In this document: piece by piece, positions 40,101 through 43,100 of the stretch
How positions within the stretch are numbered: position 1 is the stretch's first letter
How the letters are laid out: each line of letters opens with the position of its first letter
Assembly (NCBI GenBank): GCA_963693365.1
Contig: CAVNZM010000003.1
Location: 8,365,312 to 8,429,311 of the forward strand
DNA length: 64,000 bases
Direction: 5' to 3'
Source of the DNA: Amoebidium appalachense
Taxonomy: Eukaryota; Protista; Ichthyosporea
Made by a program: the position numbers and the translations under genes
The notes under the pieces: model-generated
What the model saw: only the letters and a program-made list of their open reading frames with translations
The model's database searches: none
Told to the model about the DNA's origin: nothing

Positions 40101-43100
40101 ACACCGTTAGGCACGTACGTACAGAGTTCGGATGGGAAAAAATAGATGCTGCCTGCATACCCGGAGAACAGTCGTGATACACCGCACGTCATACGTCTGC
40201 CATCTGGCATTTTATATATCCATTTAATCACTTCCACATAAACGAAATAACTTACGTGACTTCTGGTTGTGTGTAGGTCGCATGTGTGGTGTGCAAGTAG
40301 GATGGTGGTGATACACTACAACAGCACTAGCCCCTGTATGTTATGTGCTGGCAGAAGAAATGTGAGCTGGAGCGAAGCGGAAGGTGAAAGGTGTGCGTGT
40401 GTTGGGGGAGGGGGGGGGGGGGGAAGGGGGGGGGGGGGGGGGGGGGGGGGGGGGGGGGGGGGGGGGGGGCACACCTGCTGCAACCATACGGCTTGGTGGA
40501 GCATTGCTCAATTTGTTGATGAAGATATCCTGAGAAGGAAAAATGCAAACAAAAATGTGTGTGTGTGTGTGTGTGTGTGTGTGTGTGTGTGCGCGCGCGC
40601 GCGCGCGTGTGTGTGTGTGTGTGTGTGTGTGTGCGTGTGTGTGTGTGCGTGTGTGCATGCGTGCGTGCGTGTGTGTGTGTGCGTGTGCATGTGCGTGTGT
40701 GTGTGTGTGTCTGTCCGTGTCTCTTGGTGCATGTCTGTTCCTTTAAAGGTTACGTGCATGCACCTTGCATGTGAGAGGGAGGTGATTGGGAGGAGTAGAG
40801 GGTGTTAGGCGGGATCAAGTGTGTGGTGGAGGTGGGAAAGGGGGAAACACGGGGAGGGGGAGAGGGGGGGGGGGGGGGGGGGGGGGCTGGGGAAGAAGGG
40901 ATGTTAGGCTGTAGTTCATAACAACTAACATCAGTAAGAGGTGCCTCGAACATGGCAAGCCAAACCCAACATCTGTGCATACACATCAAGCAATCGTTCT
41001 CATGCTCCACGAGGCGTGTGTGTGTGTGGATTAGGGGGGAAAGGGGGGGGGGGGAGGGGGGGGGGGGGGGTTAGGAGAATGTGTGCTATTCATTCCTTCA
41101 TCCCTCACTTGCACTTTTGCACCATTTGCTGTTGCATGCCTGCGCGAGCTTCCACGTGTCCTTGAATATGTGAGTGTGTGTGCATGAACGGGGCCGTGTG
41201 CGGTGTTTGCATGTGTAGGTGTGTGTAGCATGTTATTGCATGCTTACACTTCGTCAATTTTCCGGTTAAGGCAAAAAGACAAATAAAAACAAAAGAAAAT
41301 AACACCCAAAAAAAAAAAAAAAAAAAAAAAAAAAACAGAATCGATAACAGCAGGCAGAAAAGAGATGAAGGGGGAACAAGAAGGTGGGGGGGGAGGGGGG
41401 TTGGTTACCGATTCACCCTGGTCTCTTCTTCTCAACTCAAAATGGTTGCCTCCAGGGGCGGAATTTGCCTCCCCACACTCCCAATTGGCATACATCTGGA
41501 GGGGGGAGTCGTGCGAGCCCATTCGCTCCTCCACCACTGCACATGGCCAGTATTTAATAAGTCGTTTGCCTAATATGGTAAACTGATGGACTATTAATAG
41601 TTAAATATGGTAAAGGGAATGGAACTTTGATGGAATATTTTTAACATTGATGGTGAGTGGGCAAGTGATATTTTTGCACTTGGTTTAGCTGTTACATTAC
41701 ACATGATCATTGAATGTTTTGTGTTGTCTAATGTGTGTGTATGTGTGTGTGCGTGCGTGTGTGTGTGTGGCATGGGTGGTTGTGCGGATGGAAAGGGACG
41801 GCCCACGTGTGTGTGTGTGCGCGCGCACGCGCGTGTGTGTCTGTCTGTGTGTGTGTGTGGTGTGTGTGTGTGTGTGTGTGTGTATGTGTGTGCGTGTGCG
41901 TGTGCGTGTGCGTGTCCGTGTGTGTGTGTGTGTGTGTGTGTGTGTGTGTGTGTGTGTGTGTGTGTGTGTGTGTGTGTGTGTGTGTGTGTGTGTGTGTGTG
42001 TGTGTGTGTGTGTGTGTGTGTGTGTGTGTGTGTGTGTGTGTGTGTGTGTGTGTGTGTGTGTGTGTGTGTGTGTGTGTGTGTGTTCCGATTGTGGGTGCGG
42101 GGGGAGGGGGGGGGGAGGGGGGGGGGAGGGGGGGGGGGGGGGGGATTGATGTATGCGTTAGAGCGCTGGAAATATGGAGGAGACAACAAAGAGCAACAAC
42201 GAACGTCACAAAAGTGGGAAATCCCAAATCAAATAATTTAAGCGTGCAGGCAGAAAACACTTGAACAGAGCCCATCATCAGGGGGGTTCCTATGCCTCCA
42301 CAAAAGCATGGGTTTCGACTCTTTAACCTCTCACGCGTGGTTCCCAACCCATACTTTGTTTCAACAGCAATAGGCGAGTCCACCCGTCTTGGCCAAAGAC
42401 GAGCAGGATTGTTCAAGGAGGAGCAATTTAAGAAAACAGAGTCTACAAAAAAGAAAGGGGGGGGGGGGGGGGGGGGGGGGGGATGTGCGCGCTGTACACG
42501 GTACGAAGCACCCATACACCATGAAGAACACATTCATGTGCATATACGGCAGAACAAACACACAAGCTACATACCATAATGAGAGTGAGAGGGGGGGGGG
42601 GGGGGGGGGGGGGGGGGGGGGGGGGGGGAGCAATGGCTCACCTCCTGTTTTTGCGTCTTCCATCACAGCCACGAGATAATAGTCATCGACTGATTCCTGT
42701 GGGTCAAATTTCTGCAGTAACCTGAAAAAAAAACACCTGTTAAAATTAAAAGAGTAGTGGTGGGCACATATGCACACACCATTTTTTTCTCACTCACTTG
42801 CTCCCTCACACAAACAGACAAACAGACATACACACGTTCACTTCCCTCCCCTCCCTTGCCCTCCGCCCCTTCCTCCTCCTCCCCCCCCCACCCACCTCCA
42901 CTCCCCCCAGTTTCTCTCTCCCTATTTAACTTTCCCCATCTTCTCCCCTCGTCCCCTCCTCCAGCCCCCCTCCCCTCCCTCCCTCTCTCCCTCCCCTCTC
43001 TCTCTTTCTTTGTCTCCCTTTCTTTGTCCCTCTTTCTCTCTCTCCCTCTCTCCCTCTCCCTCTCCCTCCCTCGCTCTCTCCCTCCCTCCCCCTCACCCTC

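Follow-up and report, generated by a model that had tools for sequence, protein, structure and literature searches.

The stretch analysed here, called the window, comprises 64,000 nucleotides (nt) from Amoebidium appalachense (contig CAVNZM010000003.1), and all positions refer to the whole of it. The DNA is intron-rich, eukaryotic and full of C, G and CA runs. Gene models made by eye place a RasGEF-like gene at about 45000-28100 and a zinc-finger gene at about 25730-17800, both on the minus strand and both named provisionally after their peptide motifs, together with an OSTF1-like gene, for which the matches of an exon search were OSTF1-like proteins from chytrids and animals (50-77% identity), none of them close. 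The feature under study lies on the minus strand within a RasGEF-like gene intron; it is a kink-turn (k-turn) arm at 42289-42374 that belongs to a mobile repeat carrying a putative hammerhead ribozyme. The repeat was seen in three subfamilies, A, B and C, whose k-turn and ribozyme copies lie on the minus strand. An earlier note had proposed that the k-turn would allow a hammerhead with reversed strand order to fold in cis, possibly in dependence on a host protein.

BLAST within the window recovered 10 fragments of the repeat, two with the whole ribozyme domain and the rest 5'-truncated, and one further weak, degenerate match at 36461-36422. The complete B domain is followed by a 3' tail (42165-42260) that continues to a C-run; the A element, traced over 30075-30400, contains a full ribozyme domain at 30176-30336 and has its 3' end at a C-run. 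The other minus-strand fragments are a C copy truncated at its AGU bulge (34318-34493), a B copy truncated 3 nt after the predicted cut (33024-33200), a degenerate B copy starting within about 3 nt of that cut (20419-20504), an A copy truncated in the stem I strand (43495-43623), 3' tail fragments of B (25281-25383) and A (19193-19281), and an old A tail fragment just upstream of the complete B copy (42496-42533); the sole plus-strand copy is a C 3' tail fragment at 11042-11117. All six fragments whose 3' ends were traced stop at a C-run, and the window copies show variable 5' truncation, a fixed 3' end and a microsatellite target. In run X1, 2276 contigs matched the B copy and 6752 the A copy, and runs labelled as two other organisms gave 1631 (B) and 3902 (A) matching contigs, numbers that show a high-copy repeat and are not a copy number. 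All 10 fragments, including the single plus-strand one, are sense to their putative host introns, in a small sample in which two fragments are adjacent. Target bias explains this orientation only in part, because the counts of C-runs of at least 10 by strand are mixed between genes (34 sense versus 17 antisense in the RasGEF-like gene, 6 versus 15 in the zinc-finger gene). Several of them sit just behind a 5' splice site and a C-run. Such a uniform sense placement in introns is odd for a self-cleaving RNA.

Some further features of the repeat were noted in passing. B copies lie just downstream of old A tails and C-runs (42496-42533 and 42425; 20620-20504), an adjacency that suggests that one subfamily inserted into the C-run at another's end, and the same junction occurred in run X14. 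Sequencing depth on B drops about tenfold just 5' of the closing helix P0 (42414-42424) in runs X1 and X2, so that many copies may start at this helix or carry another leader, and depth on A fades gradually to 30400. At 42240-42244, according to loose ends of X1 and X2, some copies carry a T-run (ribozyme strand) in place of their 3' side. A reading of the element as carrying RNA polymerase III A and B boxes was dropped, the A-box-like stretch not being kept in subfamily A (by eye).

As read from the sequence, the motif of B, A and C fits the standard simple k-turn consensus (PMC5061560; here and below, papers are cited for the available part of each). In B, the canonical (C) helix pairs 42374-42366 with 42296-42289 (8 base pairs (bp) and one bulged U) and is followed by the bulge GUU (42365-42363), G1b (42362), A2b (42361) and an A at 3b (42360); on the noncanonical (NC) side stand G at 3n (42299), G2n (42298) and A1n (42297), making 3b.3n an A.G pair. 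In A, the C helix pairs 30292-30284 with 30212-30205, again 8 bp with one bulged U, and the bulge GUU (30283-30281), G1b (30280) and A2b (30279) are followed by U at 3b, with U at 3n (30215), G2n (30214) and A1n (30213) opposite, making 3b.3n U.U. The helix, 3-nt bulge and tandem G.A/A.G pairs of B and A are therefore present exactly as the earlier note wrote them, on the minus strand. Subfamily C, known from the 34-kb copy and from loose contig ends, has an AGU bulge (34492-34490), GA opposite GA (34489-34488 and 34428-34427) and A.G at 3b.3n, and its whole C helix with a bulged U, preceding the AGU bulge, was seen by eye in the loose ends of X1 and X17. The 2-nt bulge (CA-GU-GA) formerly read in the 34-kb copy was a misparse: a genomic C-run precedes the copy, giving the sequence C-run, AGU, GA, AAC (34492-34485). 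A conserved GUU bulge likewise does not hold, the bulges being GUU (B), GUU (A) and AGU (C); therefore the 3-nt length is kept and only L3 = U is invariant. The GA/GA pairs are retained in B, A and C and are broken in the 5'-truncated 33-kb copy, which has lost A1n. The -1b:-1n pair is U.G in B and A-U in A and C, and the NC helix beyond the G.A pairs has 13-14 pairs in A and B and 13 in C.

A descriptor of the motif (C helix of at least 7 bp, 3-nt bulge, GA/GA, NC arm of at least 10 bp) matched five times on both strands of the window (128 kb), at B, at A and at three places in purine/pyrimidine-run sequence. Any match was found in 11 of 3000 dinucleotide shuffles of B and 6 of 3000 of A, a comparison that serves as a post-hoc control because the descriptor was shaped on these two copies. 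Among the k-turn variants listed, A had none at or above 2% in four runs, and B had only G2n->A at 0.6%, 0.2% and 7.5% of depth in X1, X2 and X13 (listing threshold for B, 5%). Runs X13 and X17 may be RNA, by a guess. We did not count this invariance as selection, because young repeats are uniform anyway. As to the claim that the flanking pairs covary, A and B have C helices of different sequence that both pair, but MAFFT registered none of their pairs; the covariation of this helix consequently rests on our coordinate tables.

The conserved ribozyme blocks run in the order S, G, C, that is, cleavage site, then GAAA, then CUGAnGA, and the pattern GAAAC, GA, CUGAnGA at fixed spacing had three matches in the window and none in 100 shuffles. 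The reversed order noticed earlier is already known as type SGC, whose members cleave in vitro during transcription at 0.007-0.19 per minute with no added protein (Eckert 2023, PMC10085705). On the strength of the sequence and of this analogy, cleavage in B is predicted after the GUU triplet at 42345-42347 (U16.1 at 42347, U17 at 42346, cut before 42345), and in A at 30263/30262. Block G of B (42313-42321) holds the stem II 3' strand GAGUC (42321-42317) and GAAA (42316-42313), and block C (42274-42284) holds the stem I strand CCC (42284-42282), CUGAUGA (42281-42275) and an extra U (42274). The NC arm of the k-turn is an extended stem III (42299-42360 in B), which from A15.1-U16.1 (42313/42347) to the 1b.1n pair counts 16 layers in B, A and C despite their differing sequences. 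B and A each have one bulge in this arm; C has no bulge, and its stem III has 11 unbroken bp. Between the S and G blocks, the stem I-II linker (42322-42342) forms a weak hairpin with the self-complementary loop CACGCGUG.

Which strand completes stem II is central to the interpretation. The strand after CUGAnGA reads U-GGGCUCU identically in all three subfamilies, whereas an upstream strand 1 nt before the C helix reads GACUC in B (42376-42380), GACCC in A and GACCU or GACCC in C. Each GACYY strand is fully complementary, by Watson-Crick pairs, to the stem II 3' strand of its own subfamily: GACUC:GAGUC in B, GACCC:GGGUC in A (30299-30295 with 30236-30232), and in C GACCU:AGGUC in X17 and GACCC with GGGUC in X1, X4 and X15 (loose ends, by eye, unphased). 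In a 5-row alignment, 74 of 75 cells were paired and 7 of 32 pairs changed on both sides, a number reached by 3 of 500 shuffles; these changes include one in stem I, one in the split stem II and two in stem III, with 2-4 sequences per helix. The structure was derived from the same aligned sequences, most helices had two rows, and the C helix, unaligned by MAFFT, was left out. Farther out, hairpin H (42382-42404, loop with UUGGCCAA) precedes G10.1, and two closing helices join the 5' strands at 42406-42416 (P0 42416-42410, P0' 42408-42406) to the 3' strands at 42261-42273 (P0' 42273-42271, P0 42267-42261). Between A and B, three of the seven pairs of P0 differ on both sides. In B the majority allele at 42408 (99.7%) makes P0' (CCC/GGG) perfect, and in A that at 30293 (98.5%) adds a C-helix pair, leaving a 1-nt linker. 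Stem II thus most likely uses the upstream GACYY strand with the core split after A9. A9-U enters P0'/P0 while hairpin H enters G10.1, and therefore the core would be opened between A9 and G10.1. The C helix lies 1 nt from stem II and 2-4 nt from stem I under this arrangement, and we infer that it plays the part of the type-SGC 'I' helix, which ties these two stems together.

The earlier note had taken stem II to use the strand after CUGAnGA, and a single-molecule alternative can be built on that assumption: the k-turn folds one molecule back, its own CUGAnGA completes the core, stem II is the GGCUCU strand after A9 with a 2-nt insertion (in B at 42272-42267, overlapping the P0' and P0 3' strands), and GACYY, P0' and P0 make up the inhibitory fold of a two-state switch. 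The contiguous strand does pair in 6 of 6 positions in both A and B, 1-2 inserted nt are allowed at this place in type-SGC ribozymes (PMC10085705), and the CUC of the strand is invariant in the three subfamilies. We nevertheless think this arrangement unlikely, if the strongest of the competing ones: the GGCUCU strand stays constant while its proposed partner changes, the 34-kb C copy makes only 4 of 6 pairs, two of them wobbles, the majority A copies have a mere 2-nt linker, and the equivalent pairing is unavailable in eight 3' ends of Naiad elements. Covariation and these Naiad ends both favour the strand 1 nt from the C helix.

Whether the strands can meet in one molecule was examined with a geometric reach model, in which the rise (2.6-2.8 Å), 2-3 core layers and coaxial stems II and III were assumed, the included k-turn angle was varied over 35-65 degrees around the published 50 (PMC5061560), and the best helical phase was granted. 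With a straight helix the stem I strand reached the core in 0 of 72 settings in each of B, C and A, which bears out the earlier contention that a bend is required; with the kink it did so in 215 (B), 204 (C) and 100 (A) of 216 settings, as the single-molecule switch would also need. The idea that the k-turn makes cis folding feasible is thereby upheld for the CUGAnGA strand. It fails for the upstream stem II strand on its 1-nt tether, which reached in 0 of 216 settings for A/C and in 0 of 216 for B, even though up to 30 degrees of extra bend and two frayed pairs were included, so the original cis logic holds only if CUGAnGA is the sole strand that must return. The smallest gap was 6 Å (A/C) or 9 Å (B) and the median 19-21 Å. 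One might still suppose that the split core is right and closes in cis, the helices bending, fraying or unstacking beyond the model and the palindromic loops described below being incidental or acting on DNA. Eckert 2023 faced the same puzzle where the links were 0 nt long and observed that other SGC members cleave co-transcriptionally, and a least gap of just 6 Å is not large; the uniform failure to close, the median gap and the 11 unbroken pairs of the C stem III speak against this, and we consider it improbable.

With type-SGC ribozymes (HRIMA-1 and variants, PMC10085705) the repeat shares the S, G, C order, CUGAnGA-U, GAAA and UH, a short linker that precedes the stem II 3' strand and ends in UAA or the like, a helix tying stems I and II, and the stem II pairs of GACUC, GACCC and GACCU, which occur in the SGC variant alignment. 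The ribozymes of Eckert 2023 come from metatranscriptomes, have a one-piece block C and link the I helix to stem III on one strand only, whereas here the setting is a eukaryotic genomic repeat, the core would be open between A9 and G10.1, both strands of the I helix run through the k-turn into stem III, and the I-II linker is a self-complementary hairpin; because covariation favours the upstream strand over a one-piece block C, we file the repeat as a type-SGC variant and not as a plain member. The same paper notes that the I helix and stem III are in some cases directly connected at their far ends, though these are distant in the crystal structure; the words 'kink' and 'k-turn' were absent from its text and supplement in a keyword search. 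As in simple k-turns (Kt-7, the SAM-I riboswitch, box C/D, U4), a 3-nt bulge, G1b.A1n and A2b.G2n are set between flanking helices; unlike the standard ones, the -1b:-1n pair is U.G (B) or A-U (A, C) rather than C-G, and the motif stands in a predicted self-cleaving mobile repeat.

The closest parallels to the split layout were found in Naiad elements. Eight Naiad 3' ends from Craig 2021 (PMC8557442; near supplement parts 8-12 and 24) could be read by eye as P0', H, split stem II, I helix, hinge and stem III, and in all eight the bases after A9 are unable to form stem II; since these ends have the same layout, the split core appears to be a shared design. The eight are a floor without a denominator, and several other entries show cores of ordinary order. 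The hinge is a k-turn in two octopus entries, a bulge in four ends and a multiway junction in two. The octopus entries carry the bulge on the 3' strand and have a 5-bp stem III, U.U at 3b.3n, a 4-nt linker and no palindrome, so relative to them the k-turn here has reversed polarity and an arm of 16 layers; the same reach model applied to the octopus arms let the split stem II strand reach in 62 of 72 settings. The available part of Craig 2021 reports no canonical hammerhead in Naiad and tags some ends 'HHR_half_core', one of our eight among them. Chlamys relatives insert at (C)n and (CA)n (PMC8557442) and the copies here end at C-runs; by architecture and C-run ends, the repeat may be tied to Penelope-like elements.

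Two loops of the domain are self-complementary. The I-II linker loop is CACGCGUG or CGCGCG in B (CGCGCG at about 96% of depth in X1 and X2), CGUAUAUACG in A and UCGUUAACGA in C, and the H loops are UUGGCCAA and UUGAUCAA, in which the centre changes from GGCC to GAUC with self-complementarity kept. The linker self-duplex was computed at -13 to -17 kcal/mol versus -1.4 to -1.9 for the hairpins. The dimer gain of the linker was reached by 42 (33-kb B copy), 60 (C), 160 (B) and 563 (A) of 2000 shuffles and was thus unusual in the 33-kb B copy and C and marginal in B, and the H loop centres rank 3 and 26 of 256. In metazoan and Penelope hammerheads it is established that palindromes drive dimer formation (PMC4209133; for retroelement hammerheads also PMC3088659), and for newt satellite 2, retrozymes and the pseudo-long terminal repeats of Penelope a palindromic loop has been proposed to make cleavage need a nearby second copy (PMC4209133). 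The hammerheads of Cervera and de la Pena 2014 (PMC4209133) have the ordinary type I order, and the palindrome completes their tiny stem III; the present palindromes lie instead in the I-II linker and hairpin H, next to a long stem III.

The interpretation that we favour, though tentatively and at a little under an even chance, is a split-core type-SGC hammerhead in which the k-turn forms a corner and which cuts mainly as a dimer of two RNAs. The dimer is preferred because stem III has 16 layers in all three subfamilies and two loops are self-complementary, and because the short arm cannot reach its own core each molecule would lend its GACYY and CUGAnGA strands to the core of its partner. In such a dimer the k-turn would be a corner at which stem III meets the helix bearing the strands of stems I and II, and a two-fold ring could form in which k-turns make up two of the corners and the self-complementary linker is a strut that spans the cores; with two k-turn bends of 130 degrees, the total can reach 360 if each of two core bends contributes about 50 degrees (range tried 300-410). 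Lone intronic copies would then remain mostly uncut, with which the sense orientation of all 10 fragments agrees, and tandem or abundant retroelement transcripts would be cut. We saw no same-subfamily tandem copies within the window. A fuller version of this picture, which we put forward as rather doubtful speculation, is that of a self-assembling RNA ring of strand-swapped copies with k-turn corners and a palindromic strut, cutting only when copies meet through tandem insertion or high expression and leaving thousands of lone sense intronic copies harmless, with the lengthening of stem III by about one helical turn as the switch from a one-molecule octopus Naiad design to an obligate dimer.

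Several points weigh against the dimer interpretation. The A linker is ordinary by the shuffle comparison (563/2000), and the palindrome tests were post hoc. The reach model is coarse, flat and idealised, not atomic, and only two full copies could be aligned, the 5' part of subfamily C coming from printed loose ends. The invariant CUC after P0' is unpaired in the split model and paired in the contiguous one. Because the Naiad hinge is a k-turn in only two of eight ends, the hinge and not the k-turn is the shared feature. Minimum-energy folding did not return the k-turn arm (z -1.44 and -2.09): the nested k-turn-arm fold has about -39 kcal/mol versus -53.6 and -61.1 for the minimum-energy folds, in energies that count neither pseudoknots nor G.A pairs, and because these folds outscore it monomers may misfold. 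Finally, there was no pile-up of contig ends at the predicted cut among the loose ends listed; two of the nine truncated window copies start within about 3 nt of it.

Dependence on a host protein, which the earlier note had suggested in general terms, would at most be specific to one subfamily. A 3b.3n pair of A.G is the best folder in Mg2+ alone and U.U is intermediate (PMC4382518), U.U is typical of box C/D k-turns, and G at -1n helps folding (PMC5689011). B and C thus share A.G with Kt-7, and A shares U.U with box C/D (PMC5061560, PMC4382518, PMC5689011). By these rules B (A.G, G at -1n) and C (A.G) should fold unaided, driven by Mg2+, and A (U.U, A-U at -1) likely needs protein help; Snu13/15.5K could bind all three subfamilies and would be needed mainly for A, so the general claim does not stand. 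One could go further and regard the k-turn mainly as a Snu13/15.5K site that stabilises or localises the element RNA in the manner of a small nucleolar RNA (snoRNA), with cleavage that is slow, does not occur or does not depend on the kink. In keeping with such a role are the L3 = U shared by the three subfamilies, the box C/D-like U.U of A, the sense orientation in introns and the absence of any Rfam match, hammerheads included, at gathering score. It is improbable in our judgment, given that the core nucleotides and the three stems (I, II, III) remain intact with 7 of 32 pairs changed on both sides, that B and C carry the A.G typical of protein-independent k-turns, that boxes C and D are unmatched, and that in other Naiad ends bulges or junctions occupy this place. 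A box C/D snoRNA itself was rejected: A reads UUGAUGC and UUGA, and B and C read GAAAC and UGGA, versus RUGAUGA/CUGA, with no Rfam match.

Both the k-turn and the SGC order have been described before. The literature searched, which included few subscription papers, yielded neither their combination nor the split core nor the genomic eukaryotic setting. In that literature no paper combined hammerhead, k-turn and retrotransposon, and no description of a core opened between A9 and G10.1 was found. Among the matches listed, no natural hammerhead with a k-turn was evident by title or abstract start, and the term 'type-SGC' occurred only in Eckert 2023. The word 'kink' was absent from the available text of a retrozyme preprint (10.64898/2026.07.22.740005) and of PMC13725137. 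If the split-core dimer interpretation is true, the k-turn of ribosomes, small nucleolar ribonucleoproteins and riboswitches would be placed inside a natural self-cleaving ribozyme, giving a testable answer to the puzzle of Eckert 2023, namely how stem III and the I helix can be linked at their far ends. Standard hammerhead descriptors miss a split core; this would account for the report that Naiad lacks hammerheads, and split-core ribozymes may be undercounted. A dimer- or L7Ae-gated hammerhead would furthermore be a ready part for RNA switches.

Pattern scans for relatives elsewhere yielded 7 + 40 viral and 83 metagenome loci (130), with no relative among them, and BLAST of the first 90 gave no match at E 1e-3. 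A structural descriptor kept 3 of the 130: two (L058 and L068) look like chance matches in coding-like DNA, and the third (L027, a metagenome contig) is an ordinary tandem hammerhead array of 56-nt units, each a minimal hammerhead with CUGAUGA, stem II and GAAAC with a palindromic stem III. Within the window, a CUGACGA at 13851 was not recovered by the structural descriptor. At 13200-14750, in the midst of intron-rich genes, runs a long intron-poor plus-strand stretch with open frames of 187 and 321 codons, possibly a retrocopy or a foreign gene. A short local tandem duplication (unit about 50-100 nt) lies beside a GT microsatellite at 27746-27992, and a minisatellite with units of about 25-30 nt lies within GC-rich sequence at 15270-15720.

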